Notes: generated by a model not told the origin, from the letters alone. DNA of 64,000 nucleotides from Candidatus Flemingiibacterium sp. (GCA_045635785.1 JAZTWJ010000107.1:3497-67496), one strand, 5' to 3'. Shown: positions 731 through 17,798, numbered from the stretch's first letter. A program made the numbers and translations.

Positions 731-740
731 ATGTATGTGA

Positions 741-2834
741 TTAAATATTGTATAACAGTGCATCGTAGGTGGGGAACGGCCAATAGTCCTTGGCAACGAG
801 CAGTTCCAGAGCATCCGCGGATCTGCGAACCGCATTCATCGCGGGAATGAGGGAATCGCGGATATAGAACATACGGGGTTCCGTCTCCTCTATCGACTGC
901 ATGGTTTGGATAGAAGCATCAAGAAGGCGAATAGAGGTATGCAGTTCGTCCGCCTGTTCGGCAATGGCAGCGATCATTCCTAACTCCGCATTGCAGGTGA
1001 TCTGCAGTGCGATGGAAGCGGATGCACTTTCCGCCAATTCGCGCTTATAGTGCAGAACGGCAGGCAGGATCTCCTTCTTTGCCATATCCAGCATCGTGAG
1101 TGCTTCGATGCTGATCACCTTGCAGTAGCTTTCCATGTGGATCTCATGGCGGGAACGCATCTCTGTTTCGGTGAAAATGCGATGCTTTTCGTAAAGGTCG
1201 ATGTTCTTCTGATTGATGAAATTCGGCAGAGCATCCGGCGTTGTGCGCAAATTCAGAAGTCCGCGCTTTTCCGCTTCATCGATCCATTCATCCGCATAGT
1301 TGTTGCCGTTGAAAATGATGCGCTTATGCTCGGTGTACAGCTCCTTGATCAGCGCTCCAACAGCTTTGTTCACATCCACGCCCGCCGAAAGCTCCTGCTG
1401 TAGCTTATCCGCAATGCGCGAAAGCTCCTCTGCCACAATGGTGTTCAGCGTGAGGTTGGGGCCCGATATGGACATAGACGAACCGCAGCTGCGAAATTCG
1501 AACTTGTTGCCCGTGAAAGCAAAGGGCGAGGTGCGGTTGCGGTCGGTGGTATCCTTGGGGAACTTCGGCAGTACATTGGCGCCGATCTCCATCAGCGATT
1601 TGCAGTGTGCATCGTAGATCGTATCGCTTTCGATGGAGTCGAGGATCGCGGTCAGCTCATCGCCAAGGAAGATGGACATGATCGCAGGCGGTGCTTCCGC
1701 CGCACCGAGACGATGGTCATTTCCCGCCGAGGATACGGAAACGCGCAGCAGATCCTGATAATCATCCACCGCCGCGATTACCGCACACAAGAACAACAGG
1801 AAACGCGCATTGTCCTGCGGCGTTTCACCCGGATCAAGAAGATTTGCGCCGTCTTTAATGGAAAGCGACCAGTTATTATGCTTACCCGAGCCATTGACGC
1901 CCTCGAAGGGCTTCTCATGCAGCAGGCACACCAGATCATGGCGTGCTGCGACTTTTTTCATCATCTCCATGGTGAGCTGATTATGGTCAGTGGCAATATT
2001 GGTGGTGGTGAAGATAGGCGCCAGCTCGTGCTGTGCGGGCGCCGCCTCATTGTGCTCGGTTTTTGCCAGCACGCCAAGCTTCCAAAGCTCGGTATCAAGC
2101 TCATTCATGAACGCCTTTACACGCGGCTTGATGGACCCGAAGTAATGGTCTTCCAGTTCCTGCCCTTTAGGCGGACGTGCACCGAACAGAGTGCGTCCCG
2201 TAATGACCAGATCACGACGTTTTTCATAAAGCGCCTTATCTACAAGGAAATACTCCTGTTCGGGGCCCATGGTAGAAACCACTTGTGCATCCGTACCAAG
2301 CAAATGCAGCACACGGCTTGCCTGACGGGTAACTGTTTCCATCGAACGAAGCAACGGCGTTTTTTTGTCCAGCGCTTCGCCTCCGTAGGAGCAGAATGCT
2401 GTGGGAATGCAGAGTGTGTCATCCTTAATAAAAGCATAGGAAGTGGGATCCCATGCGGTATAGCCACGCGCTTCAAAGGTAGCGCGCAGTCCTCCCGAGG
2501 GGAACGAGGATGCATCCGGCTCGCCCTTGATAAGCTCCTTGCCCGAGAATTCCATAATGATATCGCGGCCCTTATTCACCGGCGTGATAAAGCTATCGTG
2601 CTTCTCCGCCGTCACGCCCGTCATGGGCTGGAACCAATGGGTATAATGGGTTGCACCCTTTTCGATTGCCCAGTCCTTCATCGCGTTTGCGACCACGCTT
2701 GCAACCTCAAGCTCCAGCTCCTCGCCGTTCTCGATGGTTCTCTTCAGCGATTTATAGGTCTCTCGCGGCAATTTCTCACGCATCACGGTATCATTGAATA
2801 CCATGCTGCCGAATATTTCCTGAATGTTGTTCAT
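741..2834 (-). CDS. glnN: glutamine synthetase, type III
   Basis: 697 aa, about 700-aa GS size class. N-terminal region ([13 protein letters not shown]) and central GS catalytic region are recognisable. RBS AGAAAGG lies 7 nt before ATG. Confidence 0.93.
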
Positions 2835-2870
2835 ATTTTTGCCTTTCTGGTGTTTTTATGGAAATATGGT

Positions 2871-2888
2871 CGCTTTCTTTAGAAAGCG
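2871..2888 (-). promoter_or_regulatory. CGCTTTC-N4-GAAAGCG hairpin in the HD-glnN spacer, 37 nt upstream of the glnN SD
   Basis: Sense strand reads GGCGCTTTCtaaaGAAAGCGaccatatttccat...cAGAAAGGcaaaaatATG. The 5' arm is also complementary to the real SD. Confidence 0.3.
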
Positions 2889-2929
2889 CCGTACCGTTTT
2901 CAATTTAATGATAGAATGCGACCGCCTGT

Positions 2930-3589
2930 TTACAGGATCAACTGATTGTTGATGCGAAGACGGAATGCCAGCCCCAGCTTGCGAGCTGCCGCATCGCACA
3001 GCTTCATTCTGCTGAGAAAAATATCGAAATACTCCATGACGGGGCATACCGCAGTATCAATGACGAGCGAAAGCTCGATCTCCCCCTGCTCTGCGCGAAT
3101 GTCAAGCTCTGATTTTTTTACCGAAAAATTCACTCTGTCGTGAATATCAGGATCAACGAGGCTTTCCTTACGTACGCGCGATTCGCGCACATCGGTCTTA
3201 TCGGCAAGGATCAGCGCGGCGGCGATGGCATTGACAGGAAATGCGGTGGCTTCGTCATGATTGCCGATGGCGCAGATAATATCTGCAATTTCTGCAGGAT
3301 CCATGCCCATTTTATCAAGCAAACGGAACGCCATCACGGCACCCGATTGGGCATGCTCCGCGCGATTGACAATATTTCCGATGTCATGCAGATAACCCGC
3401 AATCTCCGCAAGCTCCGCTTCTCTTTTTGAATATCCGAGCGCCAAAAGGATATCCCGCGCGGTGGCGGAAACCTTTCCCACATGGGGAAAGCTATGCTCC
3501 GTGTATCCGAGGGCAATAAGCACCTCGTCTTCTTTTTTGATGTAGGTGCGAATGGCTTCATTCGCCTTGATTTGTTCTATGGTGATCAT
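2930..3589 (-). CDS. HD-domain phosphohydrolase family protein
   Basis: 219 aa with an HD motif (GYLHDIGN ... GNHDE). Confidence 0.8.
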   Translation of the reverse strand: MITIEQIKANEAIRTYIKKEDEVLIALGYTEHSFPHVGKVSATARDILLALGYSKREAELAEIAGYLHDIGNIVNRAEHAQSGAVMAFRLLDKMGMDPAEIADIICAIGNHDEATAFPVNAIAAALILADKTDVRESRVRKESLVDPDIHDRVNFSVKKSELDIRAEQGEIELSLVIDTAVCPVMEYFDIFLSRMKLCDAAARKLGLAFRLRINNQLIL

Positions 3590-3643
3590 TATGTATCATT
3601 CCTTCGCCGTTTTTGGCGGTGTGTTTTGAGTGGGCAACATCCC

Positions 3644-4060
3644 TTACGCATCAAGGAAGCCTTCGCCGAACTGCCAAACCTGCTCCAGCATATGTCCGAT
3701 GTTGCCTTCGCCTGCAAATTTGGTCTGATCGAAATAGTCATGGTTGAAGTCCATCCATAGGAGGGGGTTTTCGTTTCCTTTGATGGGTGTTTGGGTATGC
3801 AGCTTGCCGCACCAAACCTCGACACGGCAATTTTGGTTGTAATATGTAAAGTCCATGAGATGGCGAAGCGTAACTTGCTCTCGGGTGATGGATGTTTCCT
3901 CCAAAAGCTCGCGATAGGCTGCATCCTCGCCCGATTCGCCCGATTCGATTTTCCCTCCCGGAAAGTTGTATAAGCCGAGATAGGGATCTTTGATCCTCTT
4001 GCACATCAGAATGTGCGTTTTATCGGGAGAAAAGATCATCAGACAATTATATCCCTGCAT
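3644..4060 (-). CDS. NUDIX hydrolase
   Basis: 138 aa. Nudix box GGKIESGESGEDAAYRELLEETSI. The start overlaps the nif3 stop (TGATG). Confidence 0.85.
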   Translation of the reverse strand: MQGYNCLMIFSPDKTHILMCKRIKDPYLGLYNFPGGKIESGESGEDAAYRELLEETSITREQVTLRHLMDFTYYNQNCRVEVWCGKLHTQTPIKGNENPLLWMDFNHDYFDQTKFAGEGNIGHMLEQVWQFGEGFLDA

Positions 4061-4830
4061 CAGACTGCCTTGACCAGATTGGAGCTGAAATATGCGGTTT
4101 GGACCTGCGTGTATTCCTTCAAAATCAGCAGCGTCAGATAGCTGCAGATGAAGTCCTCGGTATGGAAGTGTCCCGCTTCAAACAGATTCAATCCGATCGC
4201 ACCCGCATCCTCGAGAATGTGATAGGATAACTGCCCTGTCAGATAGCTGTCAGCGCCGGCTGCCTTTGCTGCCTTAACGAAATCCTTGCCTTCGCCGCCG
4301 CAGATCGCCACGCGGTTTACAACACCGCTTGCCTGCGCAAACAGCACGCGCTCAGCTTGCAATGTTTTCTTGACCTCCAATGCAAAATCCGAACAACCCT
4401 TTGCAATGGGAAGGGTTCCGATCCTGCCGATGTTTCCATCCTCCGATTCGAGAACGGTCACATCCGTCAGTCCAAGCAGCTTTGCAAAAATATCGTTCAG
4501 ACCGCCCGGTGCCGCGTCCATTCTGGTGTGAAAGGACATCACCGAGATCTTCTTTTCCAGACAGCGAAGCACACGCTTTGCCACAGGATCGCTCGGATTT
4601 ACCGCCGTTAACGGCTTAAAGATCATCGGATGATGGGAAACGATGACGTCAAAGTCGCCTTTGATGGCATATTCCACGGTTTCATCCGTCACGTCCAACG
4701 TGCAAAGCACGCGCACGACCTCCCGATTTTCATCCGCGCAAACCATCAATCCGTCATTGTCCCACTCGCATGAAAATTTGCGCGGGAATTTTTTGTCTAA
4801 AAATTCGTATAATTCTTTCACTTTAGGCAT
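4060..4830 (-). CDS. Nif3-like dinuclear metal centre protein (YqfO/GTP cyclohydrolase 1 type 2 homologue)
   Basis: Nif3 N-terminus (ELYEFLDKKFP...WDNDGL...VSHHPMIFKPL). Start moved to the internal ATG at 4830, which has AAGGAGA 8 nt upstream; the track start at 4896 has no RBS. Confidence 0.88.
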   Translation of the reverse strand: MPKVKELYEFLDKKFPRKFSCEWDNDGLMVCADENREVVRVLCTLDVTDETVEYAIKGDFDVIVSHHPMIFKPLTAVNPSDPVAKRVLRCLEKKISVMSFHTRMDAAPGGLNDIFAKLLGLTDVTVLESEDGNIGRIGTLPIAKGCSDFALEVKKTLQAERVLFAQASGVVNRVAICGGEGKDFVKAAKAAGADSYLTGQLSYHILEDAGAIGLNLFEAGHFHTEDFICSYLTLLILKEYTQVQTAYFSSNLVKAV

Positions 4831-4935
4831 TTTTCTGTCTCCTTGCTGTTGATCGGTCGGCGACCTTTTTTTGGAGTCTGCTGCTTTTTTGTGCATTATA
4901 GATATTGCTCTGCGGACGATATACGCAAAGCGAGT

Positions 4936-5628
4936 TCATACCTGTAATTCCTCAATCGTCTTCAAAACCTCAAGATCCATTTGCTGTTCATGCGAATCAA
5001 GTCCGGCAGATGCCCGACCGCGAATGCGCGTTTGGGTGCCGTTTCGAACAAAGTTGAGCCATGAACGGTCCGCTTCGGTAGGAGCTGTACGAACGCGGGC
5101 GAGATTCAGCGCGCCAAGTCGAAGCTCCGCTTCTGTATATGTACGCCGAATGCCGTCAAAACGCGCGGCAATGATTTGATAATGCTTGTTATGCTCTCGC
5201 ACGACAAGCTCATCTAAAATTTGATAGCCATCCGCAAGATAGCGGCGCAGTACTGCCTGCATGGACATGGGCTGAAGAACGAGCAGACATTTTGAGGTGC
5301 GCGGATAGGGGGATGCATCGAGAATGGATGCGATCATTTCACCGCCCATGCCTGCAATGATGATATTATCGGGTGCAAAGGCTTCGATGCCGTCAAGTCC
5401 CGGTCGGCATGCGACGATGATTTTGTCCGCAAGCCCATGCGCGGCAACATTGACGCGCGCACGCTCACAAGGGCCCTCATTGATATCCGAAGCCAGCGCG
5501 CTCGGTGCACCGTTTTCCACTAAATAAATCGGTAAAAGGGCGTGATCGGTGCCAATATCCGCCACACTTCCCTTTTCCACCAGCGATGCCGCGGCGGAAA
5601 GTCTCGCGTCAAGTCGAAAATTTGTCAA
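4936..5628 (-). CDS. trmK: tRNA (adenine22-N1)-methyltransferase TrmK
   Basis: 230 aa with the SAM-MTase motif ADIGTDHALLPIYL. The trmK-nif3 adjacency matches Bacillus yqfN-yqfO. TTG start. Confidence 0.85.
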   Translation of the reverse strand: MTNFRLDARLSAAASLVEKGSVADIGTDHALLPIYLVENGAPSALASDINEGPCERARVNVAAHGLADKIIVACRPGLDGIEAFAPDNIIIAGMGGEMIASILDASPYPRTSKCLLVLQPMSMQAVLRRYLADGYQILDELVVREHNKHYQIIAARFDGIRRTYTEAELRLGALNLARVRTAPTEADRSWLNFVRNGTQTRIRGRASAGLDSHEQQMDLEVLKTIEELQV

Positions 5629-5667
5629 TGATAATCATCACTTTCGCATTTGCGAAAGCTTCCTTTC
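5629..5667 (-). promoter_or_regulatory. SD / anti-SD / SD leader hairpin in front of trmK
   Basis: Sense strand: GAAAGGaaGCTTTCGCaaatGCGAAAGtgatgattatcaTTG. Confidence 0.45.
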
Positions 5668-5681
5668 AGGCTTATACCGCA

Positions 5682-5707
5682 AGCAGGCGCTGTGAACAGC
5701 GCCTGCT
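5682..5707. terminator. GC-rich hairpin just 3' of the DUF1858 gene (the T-run is on the plus-strand side only)
   Basis: AGCAGGCGCTG-tgaa-CAGCGCCTGCT forms an 11-bp stem. Plus strand continues atgCTTTTT; the minus strand has no U-tract, so it may be only a partial terminator or stabiliser. Confidence 0.45.
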
Positions 5708-5714
5708 ATGCTTT

Positions 5715-5915
5715 TTACTTGGATTCGAGGAAATCGTTGATTTTTTCGATCAACGCATCCGCATCGGTGCCATGCACCGCACAAGCCATTTCGATGGTTT
5801 CGCCGCGTGCGGAGGGACAGCCGAGGCAATGCATGCCGATTTCAAGGAAAAACTGTGCTGTTTCGCGATCGAAGTCAAGAACCTCACCGATAATAGAATC
5901 TTTTGTAACTTTCAT
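5715..5915 (-). CDS. DUF1858 / hybrid-cluster-protein-associated redox disulfide domain protein
   Basis: 66 aa with a CxxC motif (MHCLGCP); small single-domain protein of the DUF1858 type. Confidence 0.8.
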   Translation of the reverse strand: MKVTKDSIIGEVLDFDRETAQFFLEIGMHCLGCPSARGETIEMACAVHGTDADALIEKINDFLESK

Positions 5916-6011
5916 TTAATGACCATTGCTTTCACCGCAGTGAAAGCTTCCTTTCTCCCCCTCAGGGGCTTAATTTTTGTTGCAAAAGCTTGAACCTAAC
6001 AAAGTTCAAAC
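5916..6011 (-). promoter_or_regulatory. structured 5' UTR element (copy A of the conserved three-hairpin leader)
   Basis: Sense: GTTTGAACtttgttagGTTCAAGCTTTTGCAacaaaaattAAGCCCCtgagGGGGAGAAAGGaaGCTTTCACtgcgGTGAAAGCaatggtcattaaATG. Confidence 0.5.
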
Positions 6012-6045
6012 TGTAGATGCATCATATTGATTTACATACACCATT

Positions 6046-6074
6046 ATTATACTCCGAAAATGCCGTTTTGTCAA
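6046..6074 (-). promoter_or_regulatory. sigma-A type promoter for the DUF1858-trmK operon
   Basis: Perfect TTGACA-17 nt-TATAAT on the minus strand (-35 at 6074-6069, -10 at 6051-6046). Confidence 0.75.
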
Positions 6075-6128
6075 CGACTACGGGGCACAATTCCCATAAA
6101 ATTTGCGTATTTTTTACTTTTTGCTTCT

Positions 6129-6467
6129 TTATGCCATGTTTTCGGACAGCTTCTTGCCGCCGAGAATATGGAAATGCAAATGCTTGACGCTCTGACAGCC
6201 GTCTTCGCCCACATTTGTGATGATCCGATAGCCGTTAGTCAAGCCTGCTTCCGCTGCGATTGCAGGGATTTTTGCAAAGATTTTTGCAACGATTGCCGCA
6301 TTATCGGCAGCGATGGCATCGGCAGATGCAATGTGCATCTTGGGAATGACCAGAATATGCGTCGGTGCCTGCGGGTTGATATCATGAAATGCCAGCATAT
6401 CGCTGTCCTCATAGGCTTTGTTAGAGGGAATTTCCCCCGCGATAATTTTACAGAAAATGCAATCCAT
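6129..6467 (-). CDS. HIT-family (histidine triad) nucleotide hydrolase
   Basis: 112 aa with the HLHFHILGG triad; RBS AAGGAG. Confidence 0.9.
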   Translation of the reverse strand: MDCIFCKIIAGEIPSNKAYEDSDMLAFHDINPQAPTHILVIPKMHIASADAIAADNAAIVAKIFAKIPAIAAEAGLTNGYRIITNVGEDGCQSVKHLHFHILGGKKLSENMA

Positions 6468-6527
6468 TGGTGACTCCTTGATTTTATAAAAATTTGATGA
6501 AATCGTTTTTTCACATGAACCTTATCA

Positions 6528-8006
6528 TCAGCGAGCCGCGCTGATGCTTTCCACCGCGGCGAGGATCTCCTCACGCTCGTTATAATACAGATAGTCGCCG
6601 CCGATGATCTGATATTTTTCGTGACCTTTTCCCGCAAACAGGATCAGATCGCCTGCCTTTGCATGGGAGATGGCGTAGCGCACCGCTTCGCGTCGATCCA
6701 CAAAGCTGACGTATGGACAGCCACTCATATGCGCTTCGATTTCGGCGATGATCTCCTCGGGCGGCTCATGCCCGGGATTATCGGTGGTGATGATGGCAAG
6801 ATCCGCATACTTGGAAACGACCTCCGCCTGATCGGCGCGACGCTCCTTTGCGCGGTCGCCGATGGATCCGAACAGCACGATCAGCCGTTTTGGCTGATAG
6901 GCAGACAGCGTTTGCAGAGCAGCCTCCATGGATGCGCGATTGTGTGCATAGTCAATGATGGTGATGGCATCGGGCAGTGCTTCTATTGTTTCAAAGCGAC
7001 CGCTGACCGCGGCATTTTTTAGTGCGGTATGGATGGCATCGGGGTTGATCTGCATTTGCTCCGCCACCGCGATCGCCGCAAGTGCGTTGTAGATATTGAA
7101 TGCGCCCGGTATGCGAAGGCTATACGCGTGCTCCCCTGCCTTGCTTTTGCAGGAGAAATTCTCTCCGAGGGCATTTCCGCTTCGATAGCTTCCGAGCTGC
7201 CGTCCGTTTACATCACAGGTGCCTCCCTCGCGCATACCGAAGGTTACGACCAAAGCACTTGCCTGTCGCATCATCACGTCGCAATGCGGATCGTCCGCAT
7301 TGAAGATGCCACAGCGACAATGCTTGAACAGCGCGGCTTTGCACTGCATATAATGCTCAAAGGTCGGGTGTTCCACTCCACCGATATGATCGTGGGAAAG
7401 ATTGGTAAACACGCCGATATGAAAGCGGATCCCATCCACGCGGTGCATAAAGATCGCCTGGCTGGAAACCTCCATAACCACCGCCGCCATGCCGTCCTCC
7501 ACCATTTTTCGGAAAGCCTTGTGAAGCTCGTAGCTTTCGGGCGTGGTGTTTTTGGTTTGGATATATTCATCGCCGATACGAATGCCTGTGGTGCCGATGT
7601 ATGCGGTTTTGATGCCGCCCTTCTCTAAAATAGCGCGCACCAATTCTGCTGTGGTCGGCTTTCCCTTTGTTCCTGTGATTCCGATAACGACCAGCGATCT
7701 TGCAGGATGTGCAAAGAATGCCGCAGATGCATATGCCATTGCCTCGCGGGAATTTTCTACCACGATCTGCGTGGCATCGCTTGGAAGCGGAAGCTCCTTC
7801 TCCGTCAGAAAAGCTCTGCATCCGCGGGCATAGACCGCCTCTGCGTAGTCATGTCCGTCCGACCGCGCACCCTTCAGACAGACAAACAGCTTGTCGCTGA
7901 CATCCGCCGTGCGCGAATCATAGATCATATCGGCAATGTCAACGCTTTCCGCCGCCGGTCCGACGGCTTTGTAGGCAAAGTCCTCGCAAATTTTGCTTAG
8001 AATCAT
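6528..8006 (-). CDS. murE: UDP-N-acetylmuramoyl-L-alanyl-D-glutamate ligase MurE (diamino-acid specificity uncertain)
   Basis: Mur ligase P-loop GITGTKGKPTT. Start moved to ATG 8006, which has AGGAGA 7 nt upstream. The specificity motif reads DNPG rather than DNPR. Confidence 0.9.
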   Translation of the reverse strand: MILSKICEDFAYKAVGPAAESVDIADMIYDSRTADVSDKLFVCLKGARSDGHDYAEAVYARGCRAFLTEKELPLPSDATQIVVENSREAMAYASAAFFAHPARSLVVIGITGTKGKPTTAELVRAILEKGGIKTAYIGTTGIRIGDEYIQTKNTTPESYELHKAFRKMVEDGMAAVVMEVSSQAIFMHRVDGIRFHIGVFTNLSHDHIGGVEHPTFEHYMQCKAALFKHCRCGIFNADDPHCDVMMRQASALVVTFGMREGGTCDVNGRQLGSYRSGNALGENFSCKSKAGEHAYSLRIPGAFNIYNALAAIAVAEQMQINPDAIHTALKNAAVSGRFETIEALPDAITIIDYAHNRASMEAALQTLSAYQPKRLIVLFGSIGDRAKERRADQAEVVSKYADLAIITTDNPGHEPPEEIIAEIEAHMSGCPYVSFVDRREAVRYAISHAKAGDLILFAGKGHEKYQIIGGDYLYYNEREEILAAVESISAAR

Positions 8007-8130
8007 GGTTTGTCTCCTGTATGTGCGGACCACTGCCGCGTGCTTGTTGATGGAAATGCTCTTATGTGAAGATGCCTGCGCGATTTATTTTTTCGCCGTT
8101 TGCTCATAGCACCTCATGCAGAAACCATTC

Positions 8131-8856
8131 TTATCTGCGAAGCTGTTTTCCGCAGGCGAGAATGGATGAGCGTGCAAGACATTCCAGCGAATCCACAAAA
8201 AATTCGTCAAGATGACCTGATTTTTTGATCAGAGACAGTTCTGTACAGCCGAGGATCAGCCGTTCACAGCCAAGACTTCTCATGGCATCGGCGACGGCAT
8301 AAAACGACTGCAGATCGGGCGCGTTGCCCGATTTGATCTCGCCGTAGATGATCTGCATGATACGCCGCTGATCCGCTTCGGACGGCACCAAACATTCGAT
8401 GCCGTGCGATTGGCAGTACTTTTGATAGGTTTGCGAACGGACCGTTCCGTCCGTGGCGAGCAGTCCAAAGCGCTGTACCCCACAGCCCTTGAGGTATTTT
8501 ACCGATTCGTCGATGATATTGAGCATCGGCACAGGAACCGCCGCTTGCAGCTGATCATAAAAATAATGTGCCGTATTGCAGGGGATGGCGATCATATCCG
8601 CGCCAAAATCCACAAGGCGTTTTGCATCGGGAATCATGGCATCAAGTGGATCATCATCCGACTCGCCCACAATAAACGCAGTGCGATCGGGTGTCGTAGC
8701 ACGGCTGGAGATGACGATATCAAGGTGATCCTGGTCGCACGCCGCATCTGTCATCGATGTCAGCAGTTCGTAGAAATACACCGTAGACATGGGGCCGATG
8801 CCGCCCAGCACACCCAGCGTTTTATTCTTTTCCATAATATTTTTTGAATTTACCAT
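8131..8856 (-). CDS. aspartate racemase-type amino-acid racemase
   Basis: 241 aa. N-terminal GVLGGIGPMST and two catalytic Cys motifs (IPCNTAH, LGCTEL) typical of the Asp/Glu racemase family, aspartate racemase size. Alternative start at 8835. Confidence 0.8.
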   Translation of the reverse strand: MVNSKNIMEKNKTLGVLGGIGPMSTVYFYELLTSMTDAACDQDHLDIVISSRATTPDRTAFIVGESDDDPLDAMIPDAKRLVDFGADMIAIPCNTAHYFYDQLQAAVPVPMLNIIDESVKYLKGCGVQRFGLLATDGTVRSQTYQKYCQSHGIECLVPSEADQRRIMQIIYGEIKSGNAPDLQSFYAVADAMRSLGCERLILGCTELSLIKKSGHLDEFFVDSLECLARSSILACGKQLRR

Positions 8857-10054
8857 AATGATTATGCCCGTGCATTAAAAGAAATGCAGTCCTTTTAAAA
8901 TTGAAGAAAGTGTCGGGGCGATACCAAAGTGCCGCATGCGCCTTGCCTGCGCTTGCCAATTTCTTGGCGCGCGCGATATTTTCTTTATCACGGCAAAATC
9001 CGTAAACCACGCGCTTTGGAATGCTATGCCAAAAAATTTCCTCATCGCAGAAATAGGTCTCGCCGAGGTCTTTTTCCTCCACATGATCCTCTACGATATT
9101 TTGCGCCACATTGCAGCCTGCCGATGTGACGTAATGATTGGAGCGCCCAAGTCGCAGATTGATTTCGAATGTGCGGAAGCTTCCGTCACGGCTGTCGAAT
9201 TTGATGTCGAAATTCGAATAACCCACAAAGCCGATCTCTTCAAGATATGCCTTGAATTTTTCCATCAGCGGCTTATCCTTTTCCGTAATGATGGCGCAGT
9301 GATTGCCAAGTCCCTTTGGCGTATGCTCCTCTAAAAGCACATGCCCGAGGCACATCATCTTGACTTTTCCGTGTCTGTCCGAATAAGCGGTCAGCACGCG
9401 CATATTGGAGTCGTCGCCCGGGATCATATCCTGCAAAATGATCTTCTCCGGATAGCCCGAAGCGTATATACGGCGAATGATGATCTCCGCTTCTCCCTTG
9501 GTTGCGGCTGTGTAAACCTTTTTCATACCGTCAAAGGGATATTTCCAATAGATGGCGCTGGCGGAGGGCTTGATGATGACCGGATAGGAAAAACCAAGTG
9601 CGCTTTCATCCAGCACGTTTTGAAGATTTGTATCGGGCGTGATCACCGCCGTTTTGGGATACGGAATACCAAAGCGGTCACAATCCTCATAGAAGTTCGC
9701 TTTATATGCAAGTCTTTCAAACAGATCCGCGCCGATATAAGGCACGATATAGCGCGGACGCAGTTTTTCGCCATGGTGGATCAGCATTGCCGCATAGTCG
9801 TCGGTGCATCCGAATGCGATAAGTGTGGCATCCTGATGCGCCTTTGCAAAATCCAGCAGCGTTTGTACCATAACCTCCGGCTCATCCAGTTTTTCTACGG
9901 CGGTGAAGCGCAGGATACGGGTATAGCAGGATGCGCCGATGGCGTATCTGCCGAATGCCTGCGATTTTACACCGTACTTTTCATGAAAGGCGCGGGCAAC
10001 GCTGTAACAGTTGAGGTCCGCGCCGAGCAGCACGGGAATGATCGTATCTTTCAT
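8822..10054 (-). CDS. ATP-grasp carboxylate-amine ligase (D-aspartate ligase-like by context)
   Basis: 410 aa with ATP-grasp fold features (VIIKPSAS..., EINLRLGRSN). Its 3' end overlaps the racemase start. Confidence 0.65.
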   Translation of the reverse strand: MKDTIIPVLLGADLNCYSVARAFHEKYGVKSQAFGRYAIGASCYTRILRFTAVEKLDEPEVMVQTLLDFAKAHQDATLIAFGCTDDYAAMLIHHGEKLRPRYIVPYIGADLFERLAYKANFYEDCDRFGIPYPKTAVITPDTNLQNVLDESALGFSYPVIIKPSASAIYWKYPFDGMKKVYTAATKGEAEIIIRRIYASGYPEKIILQDMIPGDDSNMRVLTAYSDRHGKVKMMCLGHVLLEEHTPKGLGNHCAIITEKDKPLMEKFKAYLEEIGFVGYSNFDIKFDSRDGSFRTFEINLRLGRSNHYVTSAGCNVAQNIVEDHVEEKDLGETYFCDEEIFWHSIPKRVVYGFCRDKENIARAKKLASAGKAHAALWYRPDTFFNFKRTAFLLMHGHNHYGKFKKYYGKE

Positions 10055-10119
10055 TATATCGTTCCATTGCCCATACGGGCATCCTTATTTATGTTTTATA
10101 TGCGAGATATTTTGGCTCG

Positions 10120-11952
10120 TCAGTCTTCACAGAGGAAGAAGCGCTCGTACCATACAAGAAAAACGTATACGGTCCAAAGGCGACGACAGTTATTCTCCTT
10201 GCCGTCGCGATGTGCATCCAGCAGACGCACCAGCATATCCGTATCGAAAAATTCCTTTGCCGCGTTTGAACACAGCATCTTCCGCATGCGATTGTAATAT
10301 TTTTCTTCTTTGATCCAATACCGCATGGGAACGGGGAATCCCATCTTCTTGCGATCCGCCCATTCATCGGGCAAGGTCAGATTTGCCGCGCGCCGGAAGA
10401 TATATTTTGTATTTTTGCCGTTGATTTTGTATTCGTGGGGAAGCTTTGCGGCATGCTCCATCACCCTGCGGTCAAGGAATGGCACGCGAAGCTCCAGCGA
10501 ATGCGCCATGGACATCTTGTCCGCTTTGAGCAGAATATCGCCCGGCAGCCACAGATTGAGATCCAGATACTGCTTTTTATCAAGCTCCGATTTGCCCTTG
10601 ACACGGGCATAGATGGGCGCTGTAATCTCCTTGACAGAGGGACCGCCGCGATAGGCGGGCTTCAATACCGCCAGCGCGTCCTTTTCTTCCCAAACCTTCG
10701 CCTGACCGATGAAATAATCCTCGGGATTGCCGCTGGATTGGATGATAAAATCATGCCCCTTGAAATAGGGCAGCTTTTTTGCCAAAGCCGCCGCCGCCAC
10801 GCGAAGGGGCTTTGGGATACGTTTGTATCTTTGCATCATCGGGGTTTCATCGTACCATTCGTAGCCTGCGTAAATTTCGTCCGCGCCCTCTCCGGACAGC
10901 ACCACCGTCACATGCTCTCTTGCCAGCTTTGCAAGAAACCACAGCGGAACGGAGGAGAGATTGGAGTGCGGCTCATCCATATGATATTGGATCTCGGAAA
11001 GTGCGTCAAAGCACTCGTCTGCCGTGATCAGCTTGCGATAATTTTCCACGCCCAGCTTTTTTGAAAGCTCGGCGGCATAATCGGTCTCGTTGAATTTTTC
11101 ATAGGCAAAGCCCACGGAAAAGGTTTTATCGGGCATCAGGCAGGCGGTGATATAGGATGAATCCACGCCTCCCGACAAAAATGAGCCTACCTTCACGTCG
11201 GAAATGCGATGCGCTTCCACGGACTCGTGAACGATGTCATCAATTTGCTTGACATAGGTATCGAAATCGCCCTTTTCTTCGGTAAAATCCGCATCCCAAT
11301 AGCGCGTGATCTGCATTTCTCCTCCGATTTTCAAAAGGAAGCGATGCGCGGGCGGCAGCTTGAACACGCCCTCAAAAAAGGTTTCTTCCATCGATGAATA
11401 CTGGAAGGTGAGATAGGGACGCAAAGCGTTTCGATTGAGCTTTTTTACGAAATCGGGGTGTTCGAGGAAGGATTTGATTTCCGAACCGAACAGGTATCCA
11501 TCGTTCGTTTTATAATAATAGAACGGCTTGATGCCGAAATAATCCCTTGCGCCATAGAGGATTTGCTGCTTATTATCGTAGATGACGAACGCGAACATTC
11601 CGCGCAGCTTACTTGCCAGATCCACGCCGTATTTTTCCCAGCCATGGACAAGAATTTCCGTATCGGAGCGCGTACGGAAGGTATGTCCATCCGATTCCAG
11701 CTCCGTTTTGATTTCCATGAAATTATAAATTTCACCGTTGAAGATGACAGCGATGCTTTCATCCTCATTGAACATCGGCTGTGAGCCGCCGTCAAGGTCG
11801 ATGATGGAGAGTCTTCTGAAACCGAGCGCGACATTTTCATCCGTGAACATACCTGCGGAATCGGGGCCGCGATGGATGATGCGGTTCATCATTCGCTCCA
11901 GTATTTCTTTTTTCTTTTCCTGCTTCCCTGCGAAGCCGGCAAATCCACACAT
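10120..11952 (-). CDS. asnB: asparagine synthase (glutamine-hydrolysing) family amidotransferase
   Basis: 610 aa. N-terminal MCG nucleophile Cys, RGPD motif, PP-loop SGGVDSS. Confidence 0.9.
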   Translation of the reverse strand: MCGFAGFAGKQEKKKEILERMMNRIIHRGPDSAGMFTDENVALGFRRLSIIDLDGGSQPMFNEDESIAVIFNGEIYNFMEIKTELESDGHTFRTRSDTEILVHGWEKYGVDLASKLRGMFAFVIYDNKQQILYGARDYFGIKPFYYYKTNDGYLFGSEIKSFLEHPDFVKKLNRNALRPYLTFQYSSMEETFFEGVFKLPPAHRFLLKIGGEMQITRYWDADFTEEKGDFDTYVKQIDDIVHESVEAHRISDVKVGSFLSGGVDSSYITACLMPDKTFSVGFAYEKFNETDYAAELSKKLGVENYRKLITADECFDALSEIQYHMDEPHSNLSSVPLWFLAKLAREHVTVVLSGEGADEIYAGYEWYDETPMMQRYKRIPKPLRVAAAALAKKLPYFKGHDFIIQSSGNPEDYFIGQAKVWEEKDALAVLKPAYRGGPSVKEITAPIYARVKGKSELDKKQYLDLNLWLPGDILLKADKMSMAHSLELRVPFLDRRVMEHAAKLPHEYKINGKNTKYIFRRAANLTLPDEWADRKKMGFPVPMRYWIKEEKYYNRMRKMLCSNAAKEFFDTDMLVRLLDAHRDGKENNCRRLWTVYVFLVWYERFFLCED

Positions 11953-12144
11953 AGTTGTTCTCCATTTATACTCTTTTAGTGAAAATCACACAAGGGAGCG
12001 TGAGCTTCCCTTGCCATGAAAAATCTGCATAACATTTCAATTTTGATTTTCTTAATATTATAGCACAGTTTGTTCGAAAAATAAAGCATTTTCTGTTAAT
12101 TTTTGCTTGCTTTTTCAAGTTTTGGCCGGCTACACCGATTGCTG

Positions 12145-12894
12145 CTACTCCTCGTCGGAAAATTTCATCAGCTTCACTTCTTTGTAACCGTCGATACCGG
12201 CTTTTTGCAGAGCACCGAAAATCCGATGCCGAAGCCCCTTGTTTTGGCGTTCCAAACTCACAAGAAGTTGCTTCATGCTTTCTCGCTCGGTATTTTTATC
12301 CGCAGGGCACGGCGATGTGATAATCGGCAGCGGATGACGATTGGCAAAATAGCGCACATCCTTCTCCTGTGCATATAAGAGCGGGCGTATCATCGTCAGA
12401 TTCTTTCTCGACAGATATGTCACAGGGGAGAAGGAACCGAGCCGTCCTTCGAAAAACAAATTCAGCATGAAAGTATCCACCACATCATCGAAGTGATGGC
12501 CAAGTGCCAGCTTATTGCAATTCTGCCGCTTGCACTCGTCATGCAAAGCACCGCGCCGCATTTTTGCACAAAGTCCGCACGGATTTTTCTCCTTGCGAAC
12601 ATCAAAGACAATACGCGCAATTTGTGTTTTTGTGACGATATACGGTACGTCCAACTCTTTGCAGAGCGCTTCCACTTCACGAAAGTCCACCCCTTCAAAG
12701 CCCATGTCCACCGTTATGGCGACAAGCTCGAATTTTTTCGGATAGAATCGCCTCAGCTCCGCCAGCGCAAACAACAGCGTCAAAGAATCCTTACCGCCCG
12801 AGATTCCGACACCGATACGGTCGCCGTCCTCGATCATGTTGTAATCATCCACCGCACGTCTTGTAAATGAGAGGATGCGTTTGATTTCTTTCAT
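12145..12894 (-). CDS. ttcA: PP-loop ATPase, TtcA-like tRNA 2-thiocytidine biosynthesis family
   Basis: 249 aa. SGGKDS PP-loop plus Cys motifs (NPCGLC, SPCP). Confidence 0.82.
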   Translation of the reverse strand: MKEIKRILSFTRRAVDDYNMIEDGDRIGVGISGGKDSLTLLFALAELRRFYPKKFELVAITVDMGFEGVDFREVEALCKELDVPYIVTKTQIARIVFDVRKEKNPCGLCAKMRRGALHDECKRQNCNKLALGHHFDDVVDTFMLNLFFEGRLGSFSPVTYLSRKNLTMIRPLLYAQEKDVRYFANRHPLPIITSPCPADKNTERESMKQLLVSLERQNKGLRHRIFGALQKAGIDGYKEVKLMKFSDEE

Positions 12895-12933
12895 AATCTA
12901 TTCAAGCCTTTGTCTGACAAAGGCTCCCTTTCT
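12895..12933 (-). promoter_or_regulatory. SD / anti-SD / SD leader hairpin in front of ttcA
   Basis: Sense: AGAAAGGGaGCCTTTGtcagaCAAAGGCttgaatagattATG. Same layout as the other copies, but with a different stem sequence. Confidence 0.45.
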
Positions 12934-13021
12934 AAAAGCAAGTGATATTAAACCGCTTCATAAAAGCGGCGGGGCAAGCATATCATAAAATGAATACATA
13001 ACAGCGTTTGCGGCTTTACTT

Positions 13022-13108
13022 TGGTCAAAAACCACGATTTTGCCGTGCAAATCAAGCCCAAAGGGGCAGAAAGGTAGCTTTCGCCCGAGCGAAAGCCATG
13101 GTTATTCT
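13022..13108 (+). promoter_or_regulatory. structured 5' leader (copy D of the conserved leader)
   Basis: TGGTcaaaaACCAcgaTTTTGCcgtgcaaatcAAGCCCaaaGGGGcAGAAAGGtaGCTTTCGCccgaGCGAAAGCcatggttattctATG. Confidence 0.45.
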
Positions 13109-13669
13109 ATGCCGAAAGTTTTTATTGATCAGGGACACAATCCCGTAAATCCCAACGCGGGCGCGGAGGGAAACGGACTGCGTGAGCAGGACATCACCTA
13201 CCGTATCGGCATCCTTCTCGCGGAGATATTAAACAACAATCCGAATTTTGAGGCTCGCACATCAAGAAATTCTCCCACCGAGCAGATTGGCACGTCAAAA
13301 TCCTCGTCTCTCGCCACCCGTGTATCCGAAGCCAATGCGTGGGATGCGGATATTTTCCTCAGCCTGCACACAAATGCCTCTGCGAATCCCACCGCCACGG
13401 GAGTGGAATCCTTTTCCTATGCCAGAGGAACCAATGGCTTTCGTCTTGCCGAGGACGTGGCGGAAAATCTCGCGCTCATCACGGGACTTCCGAATCGGGG
13501 CACATTTCCCCGCCCCTCTCTGTACGTTCTCCGCCGCACCGAAATGCCGGCGGCGCTCATTGAAATGGGCTTCATCACAAATCCCGGTGATGCCGCACTC
13601 ATGGAGAACCAGCCGGATCTGTTTGCCCTTGGCATTTATAACGGAATTCTCGAATATTTCGCATTGTAG
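13109..13669 (+). CDS. N-acetylmuramoyl-L-alanine amidase (Amidase_3 family, CwlD-like size)
   Basis: FIDQGHN, SLHTNA and EMGFITN motifs. Start moved to ATG 13109; the track ORF from 13040 would read through the leader hairpin. Confidence 0.82.
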   Translation: MPKVFIDQGHNPVNPNAGAEGNGLREQDITYRIGILLAEILNNNPNFEARTSRNSPTEQIGTSKSSSLATRVSEANAWDADIFLSLHTNASANPTATGVESFSYARGTNGFRLAEDVAENLALITGLPNRGTFPRPSLYVLRRTEMPAALIEMGFITNPGDAALMENQPDLFALGIYNGILEYFAL

Positions 13670-13730
13670 CGGGACATACTAAAACCAAACGGATGCAGGC
13701 GTCATTTGCGCTTTGCATCCTCTTTGATAT

Positions 13731-15155
13731 TTGGAGATGTTCATGAAAAAATTCAGTGAAAGCTACGATGAAAATGCCGCAACGCTCGACAGCATATTCA
13801 AAATCGGAACCAATTACGATTTTATCGGGCGCGAGCGCATCATTGGCGGACGCCGCGCGCGCATGTATTTTATCGACAGCTTTGTCAATTCCAATGTGGT
13901 TGACAGACTGTTCGTGTATTTTGCCGAGCTTGATGAAATGGATTCGCCCGAGGGTGCGATGGCAGTTGCGGCGAAATACATGCCGCATACCGAGGCATCG
14001 GTATCAGATGATATGGACCAATTCGTCACCTCTGTTTTAAGCGGAACCATGGGGATCATCATTGATGGATTTGGTGCAGAAGGTATTTTGATGGATGTGC
14101 GCTTTTATCCCGCGAGGTCCGTGAGCCAATCGGAAAATGACCGCGTACTGCGCGGCGCGCACGATTCCTTTATCGAAACCGTCAAGATGAATTCCACGCT
14201 CATCCGCCGACGCATTCGCGATCCGCACCTGACCTTTGAGCGTTTTACCGTGGGCGAGGAATCGAAAACCGACGTGGTGCTTGCCTATATTGACGGAAAG
14301 GCGGAACCTTCTTATGTGGAAGAAATTCGCCGCCGATTATCCTCCATTCGCGTGCATGCGCTGACACTCGGTCAGCAAAGTCTTGCGGAATGCCTGATCC
14401 CACGCGGATTTCTGAATCCCTTCCCCAAATTCCGCTGTACGGAGCGCCCCGACAATGCGGCGGCGCATCTTTTGGAAGGCTTTGTGATCCTTTTATGCGA
14501 CACCTCGCCCGAGGCGATGATCCTGCCCACCTCCATTTTTGATTTTATGCAGGAGACGGACGACTATTATTTTCCGCCGTTTACGGGCAGTTATTTACGA
14601 CTTTTGCGATATGTGGTATTTCTTTTGACTCTGCTTCTCACGCCCACATGGTATTTGCTGATAACGCACACCGAGTGGGTTCCCGATGCCCTGAATTTCA
14701 TTCTCATCGACACCGAGGCAAATCTGCCCATTATCGTCCAGCTATTTATTATAGAATTTGCCCTTGACGGCTTGAAGCTTGCTTCTTTGAATACACCGTC
14801 CTCGCTGAACAATACCTTTGGTGTGGTCGGCGGTTTGATCCTCGGCGATTTTGCCGTTCAAATCGGATGGTTTGTGCCCGAGGTCATCGTTTATATGGCT
14901 TTTGTTGCCATTGCCAACTTCACACAGTCAAGCTATGAGCTTGGCTATGCCTTCAAGTTTATGCGGATGGTTTTGCTTGCCTGCACCGCGATCGGCGGCT
15001 TATGGGGCTATATCGGCGGACTGATTCTCAATACAGCTTGGCTCGTCACAACACCCACATTGAACGGCAAGCGGAACTATCTTTATCCACTCATTCCGTT
15101 TGATGCGCGCGCCATGCGAAATTTGCTCCTTCGCATGCGCTTAAAAACCAAATAG
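13731..15155 (+). CDS. spore germination protein, GerA / SpoVAF family (A-subunit type)
   Basis: 474 aa. Soluble N-domain plus a C-terminal multi-TM region typical of GerA-family A subunits. TTG start in track; ATG alternatives lie 2 and 4 codons in. Confidence 0.82.
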   Translation: MEMFMKKFSESYDENAATLDSIFKIGTNYDFIGRERIIGGRRARMYFIDSFVNSNVVDRLFVYFAELDEMDSPEGAMAVAAKYMPHTEASVSDDMDQFVTSVLSGTMGIIIDGFGAEGILMDVRFYPARSVSQSENDRVLRGAHDSFIETVKMNSTLIRRRIRDPHLTFERFTVGEESKTDVVLAYIDGKAEPSYVEEIRRRLSSIRVHALTLGQQSLAECLIPRGFLNPFPKFRCTERPDNAAAHLLEGFVILLCDTSPEAMILPTSIFDFMQETDDYYFPPFTGSYLRLLRYVVFLLTLLLTPTWYLLITHTEWVPDALNFILIDTEANLPIIVQLFIIEFALDGLKLASLNTPSSLNNTFGVVGGLILGDFAVQIGWFVPEVIVYMAFVAIANFTQSSYELGYAFKFMRMVLLACTAIGGLWGYIGGLILNTAWLVTTPTLNGKRNYLYPLIPFDARAMRNLLLRMRLKTK

Positions 15156-15358
15156 CCCGCAACTCTTCTTTATCCAACAAACGATTTCGATGCTCCCCGT
15201 CGCCGGAATGGTGCGGGGCCATGCAGGCGACGGCCCTCTATCGCCCGCGTTGTTCGCACAAACATCCCCCACGCAGTCGCACACTCCTCGTGCGGAGCGC
15301 TGCATATCCGAGACGGAATCACTGCCGAAGTACCGCAAAAATAGCCTCTTATTAAAGT

Positions 15359-15421
15359 CTTTGCGGAGCTTTCTTCAGAAAGCGACCGTTTCCTCTTTGC
15401 GGAGCTTTCTTCAGAAAGCGC
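15359..15421. repeat. two copies of a 27-nt unit (36-nt period), each carrying a GCTTTC-ttca-GAAAGC hairpin
   Basis: TCTTTGCGGAGCTTTCTTCAGAAAGCG occurs at 15359-15385 and 15395-15421. The second copy is followed by CTCCTTTTTT (terminator-like). Confidence 0.8.
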
Positions 15422-15451
15422 CCGCATCTCCTTTTTTCGGAATCCCTCGGA

Positions 15452-16621
15452 TTACTGAATCACTGTAGACTCCTTCATCGCAGTTGTACAAATTTGGAAG
15501 AAGGTTTTGCCGCGATTGACAAGAAGCGGCTCGCCGTTTGCGGAGAAAAGCTTCACGGGAACATCTTCCGATGCTTTTGACCAAGAGATTTCCTCGTAGC
15601 CGCCCGCGGTGAGATAATAGCCTTCGCCTTTGCCTGTGGTAATGACGTCCATGTGATTATAGCTGTCGCCCACAGATTTTGTGGGACAGTAAAGCACAAG
15701 AATATTGGTGAAAGAAAGCTGCTTATCAGCGGTATTATCCATGTGAGGAACGCCGAGAAATTGCTCGCGGTAATAGACGCCTTCTTCCGCATTATATTTG
15801 AAGTTTGGCATATGAACATTGGAATATGTGACTTGGAGGAAGGCGGCATTGCCGCCTTCGGGCACGCGCACCTCGCCATAGGGGACAAAGTCTAACGGAG
15901 AATCAAAACCGTCCTTTAACGCTGTATTATATTTGCAGAATCGGATCCCCTCAGCGATTCGTGCGCCGTCTGTCATCAGGCTATGCTCATATCCCATATT
16001 GGCGCGTCGCCATGCGTCACGGTAGAACATATTGGGCAAGTACATATTTACGCCGTCCAGATTGTCAACCTTGCGCGATTTGATCTCGACGTACGCCTGC
16101 GTGGAGCCGCCAGCATGAACATACAGCGCATTGTGATTTGCCGCAAAATCAAGGTAATACTCTCTTGAGGAGCGCACCGAACCTACAACAGGCAGACTTT
16201 CGTAATCCGACACGACCATCATCAGTCTTGTCTGCAAGCCTTCCACTACGCATTCATACATGATGTCCGCGTAGGAAACGCCCTCCTGCGGTGTTGCCAC
16301 GCGGATATTGTTGATCATAATTGCCGTCGGTCTCTGCAAGGACAAATCCTTTTGCGCTTCAAGACCTGTCAGCGGATTCAAAAATTCCGGAACTTCTATG
16401 GGAGCCGCGGTCGTTTCCGCAGGTTCTGTTGTTTCGGGCGCGCTTGTTGTTTCGGGTGGTATTGGTTCGGGAACGGTGACAATGTCGAATATCTTGGTCG
16501 CCGTGGTGGCATCGGTCGTTTCGTTTTGGCTTGCGGCAGCACCGCAGCTGTTCATAGAAATGCTCGCCGCAAGCAGCGCCGCAAACAGCAATGCCGCCGT
16601 TTTATTTGTGAAATTACGCAT
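15452..16621 (-). CDS. DUF3048 (YerB-like) lipoprotein
   Basis: 389 aa. Signal peptide with lipobox-like SMNSC, a T/E/P-rich linker, then a DUF3048-type core (PTAIMINN...YECVVEG). Confidence 0.78.
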   Translation of the reverse strand: MRNFTNKTAALLFAALLAASISMNSCGAAASQNETTDATTATKIFDIVTVPEPIPPETTSAPETTEPAETTAAPIEVPEFLNPLTGLEAQKDLSLQRPTAIMINNIRVATPQEGVSYADIMYECVVEGLQTRLMMVVSDYESLPVVGSVRSSREYYLDFAANHNALYVHAGGSTQAYVEIKSRKVDNLDGVNMYLPNMFYRDAWRRANMGYEHSLMTDGARIAEGIRFCKYNTALKDGFDSPLDFVPYGEVRVPEGGNAAFLQVTYSNVHMPNFKYNAEEGVYYREQFLGVPHMDNTADKQLSFTNILVLYCPTKSVGDSYNHMDVITTGKGEGYYLTAGGYEEISWSKASEDVPVKLFSANGEPLLVNRGKTFFQICTTAMKESTVIQ

Positions 16622-16893
16622 GTTTTTCCTCTTTGTTCAGTTCAAATATATCCGTACTATCATTGCCTTTTGCCATACATCTGCATTTTTATTCGCCAAT
16701 GTGAAAAACTGATCGTTACCCTTCTATTATAATGCAAAATCGCAAAAATGTCAATCATAAAACGCCTCTAACGGGCATTTTTTTGATATTTAAATATTGT
16801 TATCTAATATAGTTTACAATTTATATGTAGAATTTTACTTTTGTTTATGGTAAAATATATATAATAAAAATTAGATTGGAGGAATTCAGCAGA

Positions 16894-17163
16894 ATGTCTG
16901 CAAATCATATGATCTATCTCGGCAAGCCGCTTGTACGGCAAGGTGCTCAGCTCTGCTGGGGATATCCCACCGATAAATACGTGCTTGTTCTAGGTATTCT
17001 TTCTACCAAAAAAGTCGGCAATGCCGACGTCCCCGATCAAATTCTTATCCAAATTCAGAGCACTGCGGATAAGAAGGTTGTTAAATTCGGTTCCAAAAAC
17101 GGCTTTGCCGAGGCTTTTGAGTATGGCTCGGCGTGGCTTGAATCCGAGCTTCGCAAGGCTTAA
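16894..17163 (+). CDS. hypothetical small protein (89 aa)
   Basis: ATG 16894 has GGAGGA 9-10 nt upstream. Very AT-rich promoter region 16730-16880. Clean terminator downstream. Confidence 0.55.
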   Translation: MSANHMIYLGKPLVRQGAQLCWGYPTDKYVLVLGILSTKKVGNADVPDQILIQIQSTADKKVVKFGSKNGFAEAFEYGSAWLESELRKA

Positions 17164-17219
17164 TGCGTTGCTTGATGGCTAAAAGGCTCTGTTATTTATC
17201 TTAAACACTCGCACCAAGC

Positions 17220-17247
17220 AAGGGCAAATCTTCGGATTTGCCCTTTT
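17220..17247 (+). terminator. intrinsic terminator
   Basis: AAGGGCAAATC-ttcg-GATTTGCCCTT followed by TTAT. Confidence 0.8.
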
Positions 17248-17261
17248 ATCATTAAAATATA

Positions 17262-17288
17262 CACCCCAAAAGCTTCTGCTTTGGGGTG
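17262..17288 (-). terminator. intrinsic terminator for the minus-strand small ORF
   Basis: CACCCCAAA-N9-TTTGGGGTG; the minus strand continues tatatttt. Confidence 0.55.
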
Positions 17289-17317
17289 CATACAATTTTC
17301 AGATGATATTTTTGCGA

Positions 17318-17562
17318 TTATTCTGCAGAATCTTCGTTTGCTTCATCTACGGGAGTCCGCTTTGCGTAGAGCTTGAAGCCCTTGCGCGTTTCGCGAACGG
17401 TGGAGAAATCGTAGAGCGTTGTCAGCTCGGGATCTAATTGAGGAAGAATGCGAAGAGTCCATCGTTCTTCTTTTCATCGGCTTTGAACATTGCGATGAAC
17501 GTGGTGTCTTCGTCAATTTCCATCTTTGAAAGATCCGGATGCTTATTCGTCAGATCTGACAT
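17318..17562 (-). pseudogene. small ORF split by a 1-nt frame change (42-aa head plus about 46-aa tail); pseudogene or sequencing indel
   Basis: ATG 17562 (GGGGAG upstream) reads MSDLTNKHPDLSKMEIDEDTTFIAMFKADEKKNDG... and stops at TAG 17434. A second frame continues ...LRILPQLDPELTTLYDFSTVRETRKGFKLYAKRTPVDEANEDSAE* with no start codon of its own. Total length is 245 nt. Confidence 0.35.
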
Positions 17563-17711
17563 AACTCCCCATTCAACATAAAAAAGGCTATAACATAACA
17601 AAGTCTATTCTGTAAATAATATAAATAAAATTTACGTTAATTGCAAGAGTTATTTCAAAGGAACTGTCGGAAAATATAAAATTTTTTATGCTTTTTCAGA
17701 AAAAACAACAA

Positions 17712-17752
17712 AAAGAGATACCGGCTGCATTTTGCTTTTGCCTGTATCTCTT
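17712..17752 (-). terminator. terminator after ppiB
   Basis: AGAGATACCGGC...GCCTGTATCTCT stem; T-run on the minus strand (plus-strand A-run 17701-17714). Confidence 0.6.
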
Positions 17753-17798
17753 TCTATTTGCAGAGTTTGACCGTCTGTCAATTTTTACCGAGAAGGAG

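Follow-up and report, generated by a model that had tools for sequence, protein, structure and literature searches.

The four consecutive open reading frames (ORFs) asnB, ATP-grasp ligase, racemase and murE, found on the minus strand at positions 6528-11952 of a 64,000-nucleotide stretch from Candidatus Flemingiibacterium sp. (GCA_045635785.1 JAZTWJ010000107.1:3497-67496; hereafter the window), are likely to form an operon asnB-asl-racD-murE for peptidoglycan of the A4-alpha type, in which L-Lys would carry a D-Asp or D-isoAsn bridge. That the module makes a bridge of a single D-amino acid on a stem without diaminopimelic acid (DAP) is, judging from its motifs and homologues, very likely. The initial annotation had proposed an A4-alpha cross-bridge module composed of these four enzymes, and our results support it through the homology and predicted fold of the ligase, the cysteine pair of the racemase and the loss from MurE of a conserved Arg. 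Gene content, motifs and synteny could be read from the DNA and the fold from a model, and the catalytic steps would be those of the homologous pathway of Enterococcus faecium and Lactococcus lactis. By this homology, MurE would put L-Lys, and not meso-DAP, onto UDP-MurNAc-L-Ala-D-Glu; the racemase would convert L-Asp into D-Asp, whose beta-carboxyl the ATP-grasp ligase would activate as an acyl phosphate; the AsnB-type enzyme would amidate the free alpha-carboxyl at the expense of glutamine and ATP, yielding D-isoAsn; and, after export, the amino group of the D-Asx residue would be the acceptor for cross-linking by transpeptidases. In the precedent, AslA and Aslfm are ATP-grasp enzymes that attach D-Asp to L-Lys via a beta-aspartyl phosphate, racD shares an operon with the ligase gene, and AsnH amidates the D-Asp later (reviewed in PMC4155827 and PMC13631041).

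All four ORFs were recovered with the coordinates and strand that had been given for them (Table 1), and the description of the block as tightly spaced is accurate: 65 nucleotides (nt) separate asnB from the ligase gene and 124 nt separate the racemase gene from murE, while the 3' end of the ligase gene and the start of the racemase gene overlap, as claimed, by 35 nt. The G+C content of the block (0.48-0.54) is the same as that of the surrounding window, and there is therefore no sign of recent import.

The prediction for the stem comes from a motif of MurE. Where the E. coli enzyme (1E8C) reads TDDNPRTE and that of M. tuberculosis (2WTZ) DDNPRDE, the window protein has TTDNPGHE, that is, a Gly at the position of the Arg with which DAP-adding enzymes bind the distal DAP carboxylate. 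The motif is readable in 118 of the 120 closest homologues listed (45-67% identity) and the Arg is found in none of them, the position being occupied by Asp in 72, Asn in 27 and Gly in 19; an Asp here would suit a cationic side chain. MurE proteins encoded beside the ligase elsewhere likewise lack the Arg of DNPR (8/8), with DNPN, DNPD and DNPK motifs in Clostridia and DDPG and DDPA in Vagococcus, Pediococcus and Apilactobacillus, DDPG being the motif of Pediococcus and Vagococcus. We predict that the amino acid added by the window enzyme at stem position 3 is L-Lys and not meso-DAP. The enzyme starts with the ATG at 8006, behind an AGGAG ribosome-binding site, which gives the recorded 492-residue form, and the ORF can be extended to a GTG at 8033. 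The Arg was probably lost independently in the MurE lineage of Clostridia, because the window protein stays below the Lys-ligase equivalog of Staphylococcus and lactic acid bacteria (NF010628, PRK14022; 349.5 bits vs a cutoff of 536) and is only 33-35% identical to the enzymes of lactic acid bacteria, which fit NF001130/PRK14022 whereas the window protein fits NF001126.

The ATP-grasp ligase belongs to no Pfam family, the only profile matches being weak ones to the "carbamoyl-phosphate-synthase-like" PRK12767 (E ~1e-4), and a sequence search of the PDB was empty even at E values up to 1, so that we turned to its fold. An AlphaFold (AF2) model built from 69 family members (pLDDT 96.8, pTM 0.93) retrieved only ATP-grasp enzymes from the PDB in a Foldseek search, with E values down to 6e-16 and with PurK, an L-amino-acid ligase, carbamoyl-phosphate synthetase (CPS) and PylC as top matches; the modelled fold is that of an ATP-grasp enzyme. 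The family comprises 3332 representatives (50% clustering, E up to 1e-3), one of them from Vagococcus salmoninarum (E 3e-69 to the window ligase), and several relatives at 34-36% identity carry the IMG label "D-aspartate ligase". Over its full length the window protein is 35-37% identical to the products of the single, racemase-adjacent genes of Enterococcus and Vagococcus, and 37-38% identical to that of the Pediococcus and Apilactobacillus gene within an asnB-murE-ligase-racemase block. When one genome per species was scanned, the family was found in Enterococcus (villorum, avium, dispar and others) and Vagococcus, in Lacticaseibacillus, Companilactobacillus and Pediococcus acidilactici, in Lysinibacillus, Ureibacillus, Viridibacillus, Sporosarcina and Planomicrobium, in many Clostridia (Acutalibacteraceae, Ruminococcaceae, Anaeromassilibacillus, Neglecta, Merdivicinus, Peptococcaceae) and also in Raoultibacter. 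A neighbour-joining tree places the window ligase within a Ruthenibacterium-like clade that adjoins Caryophanales and other Clostridia, with Lactobacillales as a separate branch. The window protein is most likely a D-aspartate ligase of the Aslfm/AslA family, as predicted from these homologies. Some members of the family are fusions (P0198, P0214, P0259, P0260, P0264, P0134, P0178), with the ligase domain C-terminal or internal in proteins of 812-1235 amino acids and an extra region C-terminal to the ligase domain in those of 649-677.

The racemase and the amidotransferase both retain the motifs expected of their families. The closest solved structure to the former is the aspartate racemase of P. 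horikoshii (1JFL, E 7e-48), with which the cysteines of PCNTAH and GCTE, both catalytic, and a PDRT motif align, and the enzyme is predicted to supply D-Asp from L-Asp. The latter exceeds the cutoff of TIGR01536 (537 bits vs 267), begins with MCGF, Cys2 being the nucleophile, and has the PP-loop SGGVDSS. In 40 of 83 loci, among them those of Pediococcus, Vagococcus and Viridibacillus, an AsnB protein is encoded next to the ligase, and its identity to the window enzyme is 41-67%. From the position of the window enzyme in the block, we predict that it converts the bridge D-Asp into D-isoAsn by amidation of the alpha-carboxyl, by analogy with the AsnH-type amidation of precursor-bound D-Asp (PMC4155827, PMC3885529). 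In Anaeromassilibacillus senegalensis (L070:4082-9805) the ligase-racemase pair is flanked by two AsnB paralogues of 625 and 615 amino acids, which hints at two distinct amidation steps or at a recent duplication.

The association of these genes is not confined to the window. Using tblastn with the window proteins on 83 distinct loci that contain a ligase homologue, and counting as neighbours same-strand genes at a distance of up to 3.5 kb, we found the racemase at 53, AsnB at 40 and all four genes at eight. The 35 loci of Clostridia and others have the racemase in 25 cases, AsnB in 29 and the complete set in four; the 29 loci of Lactobacillales in 12, eight and four, respectively; and the 19 of Caryophanales and other Bacilli in 16, three and none. 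This linkage of ligase, racemase and AsnB is far beyond chance. The four full blocks in lactic acid bacteria (Pediococcus acidilactici, Apilactobacillus micheneri, Vagococcus humatus and V. fessus) have the order asnB-murE-ligase-racemase, while that of the window is found in an 80%-identical relative (L001) and in a more distant Clostridia locus with all four genes (L087), which comes in addition to the eight. Ruthenibacterium has ligase-racemase-asnB without murE, and another relative (L088) has asnB-ligase-murE. The recurrence of the same gene set in different orders argues for one shared pathway, and its presence in other organisms means that having the genes in a single block is no peculiarity of this one. 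To call it notable in a spore former, as the initial annotation did, was an overstatement: lactic acid bacteria have this block too, as do many metagenome-assembled genomes (MAGs) of Clostridia, and Lysinibacillus is a spore former whose L-Lys-D-Asp wall is already in the textbooks. The pathway, the four-gene block (in lactic acid bacteria) and spore formers of the A4-alpha type were all known, and the window is an ordinary further case. Directly 3' of murE, two relatives (L005:11497-14128 and L088:8492-11103) have a small cluster with the look of a peptide-maturation set: it encodes one ScmC-like and one PqqD-like protein together with two of unknown function.

Several observations weigh against the L-Lys-D-Asp reading, and most of them concern which amino acids are used. 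The MurE motif would exclude DAP but does not discriminate Lys from Orn. The homology of the ligase to the characterised Aslfm and AslA runs only through genus-level orthologues (E. villorum, E. avium and E. dispar, 36-37%). For Ruminococcaceae and Oscillospiraceae few wall types are on record, and our literature search for those of Ruminococcaceae or Acutalibacter found nothing recorded. The racemase, with 205.9 bits, exceeds the cutoff (190) of NF052483, the NCBIfam model for the cysteate racemase CuyB, a cutoff also passed, among Clostridia and Caryophanales, by those racemases of Viridibacillus, Planococcus and Anaeromassilibacillus that are linked to a ligase (L023:7210-7911, L012:7213-7914, L070:7221-7937), but not by those of Pediococcus and Enterococcus. 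We disfavour a CuyB identity because the cross-match spans a whole clade of ligase-linked racemases, and we read the model as over-inclusive; the annotated ORFs of the window include none that resembles cuyA. Finally, identity to the window proteins is 42% for the ligase of Planococcus antioxidans Y74 and 45% for the racemase adjacent to it, yet the wall type measured in this strain is L-Lys-D-Glu (PMC7294307). At its locus (L012:5977-7914, from Planomicrobium sp. Y74, which is P. antioxidans Y74T) the D-aspartate-ligase-family gene is directly followed by that of an Asp-type racemase, so either D-Glu ligases occur in this family or the wall type assigned by chemotaxonomy should be reconsidered. 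No column of the ligase alignment is diagnostic between putative D-Glu taxa (L012, L022, L032) and D-Asp taxa, and none of the racemase alignment separates them, the substrate motifs being identical in all.

These points bear on a variant in which the same machinery handles other amino acids, giving either a D-Glu bridge (L-Lys-D-Glu, still A4-alpha) or an L-Orn stem (A4-beta); the ligase would then add a D-dicarboxylic acid other than D-Asp, and AsnB would amidate that residue. Besides the Y74 pair, the lack of specificity-determining columns and the fact that loss of the DNPR Arg tells only that the substrate is not DAP, the variant can draw on the position of the window ligase in the tree with Caryophanales and Clostridia, away from the Lactobacillales branch that holds the characterised enzymes. 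We consider it unlikely, and D-Asp is favoured because it is found in most of those family members for which a wall type is known, because a dedicated Asp-type racemase is present and because the neighbouring gene is AsnH-like. Enterococcus, Vagococcus and Pediococcus have L-Lys-D-Asp walls, and the same type has been measured in Lysinibacillus. Lactococci and lactobacilli also have L-Lys-D-Asp walls (PMC4155827). Moreover, since MurI already provides the stem with D-Glu, a need for D-Asp better explains a dedicated Asp-type racemase, and the adjacency of AsnB fits the precedent of AsnH and D-Asp, whereas the Planococcus loci have no AsnB. The bridge residue proposed by the initial annotation thus stands as the most likely one, by weight of precedent only, D-Asp and D-Glu being indistinguishable by sequence, as Y74 illustrates.

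A more radical alternative is an ordinary meso-DAP wall, in which MurE adds DAP, AsnB amidates it as does AsnB1 of L. plantarum, and the ATP-grasp protein and the racemase make an unrelated product, for example a small peptide containing a D-amino acid. One argument for it, which also counts against L-Lys, is that of names: MurE passes NF001126, an NCBIfam model named DAP ligase (442 bits vs a cutoff of 373), and the Clostridia clade to which it belongs (window 6528-8006, proteins P0290-P0408) is called 2,6-diaminopimelate ligase by NCBI and JGI sources. However, the MurE of Pediococcus, a Lys-type organism, likewise passes another DAP-ligase model (849 vs 715), and such names are therefore uninformative on the amino acid added. 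After this control we rejected NCBIfam product names as a guide to MurE specificity, and the name given to the clade with DNP[D/N/G] motifs is probably a systematic mis-annotation. The existence of AsnB-type enzymes that amidate meso-DAP (PMC4155827) and the absence of a Pfam family for the ligase also speak for this alternative. Against it, neither the window MurE nor any of its 118 readable nearest homologues has the Arg by which DAP-adding MurE is defined, and ligase, racemase and AsnB co-occur across three orders of bacteria in varied gene orders, as would fit a shared pathway and not accidental neighbours. A meso-DAP wall seems to us highly improbable.

Table 1. Features of the cross-bridge block and its immediate surroundings (window positions; products as predicted).
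Feature	Position	Strand	Basis and remarks
AsnB/AsnH-type glutamine amidotransferase, 610 aa	10120..11952	-	PF00733 (E 1e-95), GATase_6/7, TIGR01536
ATP-grasp ligase, D-aspartate-ligase (Aslfm/AslA) family, 410 aa	8822..10054	-	predicted fold and family homology
Two-Cys aspartate-type racemase, 241 aa	8131..8856	-	PF01177 (E 3e-42), TIGR00035 217 bits
MurE, 492 aa, DNPG in place of DNPR	6528..8006	-	Mur_ligase_M, Mur_ligase_C, TIGR01085 403 bits
Extended -10 promoter-like element TGTGCTATAAT	12057..12067	-	~105 nt upstream of the asnB start; consensus match only
HIT-family gene	6129..6467	-	PF01230 (E 3e-25); 61 nt downstream of murE

The operon probably begins with asnB and has its candidate promoter at 12067-12057, since the extended -10 element precedes asnB in the window and a TGTG-TATAAT/TACAAT element aligns upstream of asnB in three relatives (L001, L088 and L005). 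Between element and gene, the leader contains a stem-loop, CAAGGGAAGC-TCAC-GCTCCCTTG, followed by a short T-run (11985-12015, minus strand; fold z = -2.0), for which neither a counterpart in the leaders of relatives nor an Rfam match was found. A regulatory RNA before asnB was rejected in view of this z value, the lack of conservation and an empty Rfam search of window positions 1-20000. At the other end, the HIT-family gene may be co-transcribed with murE; it is not 3' of murE in relatives L001, L005 and L087, and it lies outside the cross-bridge pathway. A TtcA-like gene upstream was dropped from the module because its conservation does not extend beyond the closest relative, L001. Between the HIT gene and a trmK-NIF3-NUDIX-HD gene run there is a perfect sigma-70 consensus (TTGACA, 17 nt, TATAAT; 12/12 matches; 6046-6074, minus strand).

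The window is part of an 81.6-kb NCBI contig that carries no annotation. The nearest named relatives are MAGs of Clostridia and Clostridiales, with Ruthenibacterium sp. at 56%. Upstream of the block (13040-15155, plus strand) are an Amidase_3 (CwlD-like) gene and then one for a GerA-family germinant receptor subunit, a pair that also flanks the block in L001, and in relatives CotH or YpeB adjoins murE. These GerA, Amidase_3 and CotH/YpeB neighbours are consistent with a spore-forming host. Farther away on the minus strand, the window encodes a 744-residue protein in which a GT4 glycosyltransferase is fused to a polysaccharide pyruvyl transferase (50250-52484) and, adjoining a DUF6320 gene, a 463-residue ORF without Pfam match (19689-21080).

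The interest of the block lies in the chemotype that it predicts, an L-Lys stem with a D-Asx bridge, for an uncultured lineage of Clostridia and for relatives to which the same prediction extends (Ruthenibacterium, Anaeromassilibacillus, Acutalibacteraceae, Neglecta and Merdivicinus). Wall type sets which muropeptides gut bacteria shed, and Lys-type fragments are not known to be agonists of NOD1. The peptidoglycan types of those relatives are blank in a recent review table, and Lys-Asn and Lys-Asp muropeptides were among the targets of a survey of mouse gut peptidoglycan. Within the window, no second murE and no dcw cluster were found. It would be tempting to suppose that the DNP[D/N/G] enzyme is the sole MurE of these spore-forming Clostridia and that their spore cortex is also built on L-Lys stems, although we regard this as quite doubtful. 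Work on B. sphaericus reportedly indicates that Lys-walled spore formers retain a separate DAP-adding enzyme for the cortex, a pattern from which an L-Lys cortex would depart. If a sole MurE were nonetheless the case, a sizeable group of gut Clostridia would lack DAP-type muropeptides and be invisible to NOD1. The block is also a warning on automated names, under which a whole MurE clade is called DAP ligase though it lacks the DAP-binding Arg, and the paired racemase can be mis-named cysteate racemase.

Close known systems are Aslfm with the aspartate racemase of Enterococcus faecium and AslA with RacD of Lactococcus lactis, reportedly described in 2006 by Bellais and colleagues and by Veiga and colleagues, respectively. 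As in these systems, an ATP-grasp ligase of about 410-420 amino acids directly adjoins a two-Cys Asp-type racemase on the same strand, and, as in their hosts, MurE lacks the DNPR Arg. Homology to the ligases of the genus Enterococcus is full-length (36-37% identity over ~410 amino acids), although the window enzyme falls in a different subclade from those of Lactobacillales, with Caryophanales and Clostridia, and the enterococcal loci examined have neither AsnB nor MurE adjacent. The window AsnB resembles AsnH of L. lactis and Lacticaseibacillus casei in being a glutamine-dependent enzyme of the AsnB family with a PP-loop and with Cys2 as its nucleophile. Its identity to the AsnB proteins encoded beside the ligase is 41-52% for Vagococcus, Pediococcus, Apilactobacillus, Companilactobacillus and Lactobacillus equicursoris and higher (56-57%) for the copies of Viridibacillus and Rummeliibacillus, and it has 610 residues compared with ~626 in lactic acid bacteria. 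Lysinibacillus and related Caryophanales are, like the predicted host, spore-forming Bacillota, with a ligase ~41% identical to that of the window and often beside a 42-45% identical racemase; unlike the Clostridia host they are aerobic Bacilli, not anaerobic, and AsnB is adjacent in 3/19 of the loci of Caryophanales and other Bacilli and MurE in 0/19. A further match is offered by the full blocks of lactic acid bacteria, those of P. acidilactici DSM 20284, A. micheneri, V. humatus and V. fessus, where the same four families are tightly packed on one strand. There murE stands between asnB and the ligase gene, whereas in the window it comes last and encodes a protein of a different MurE subfamily.

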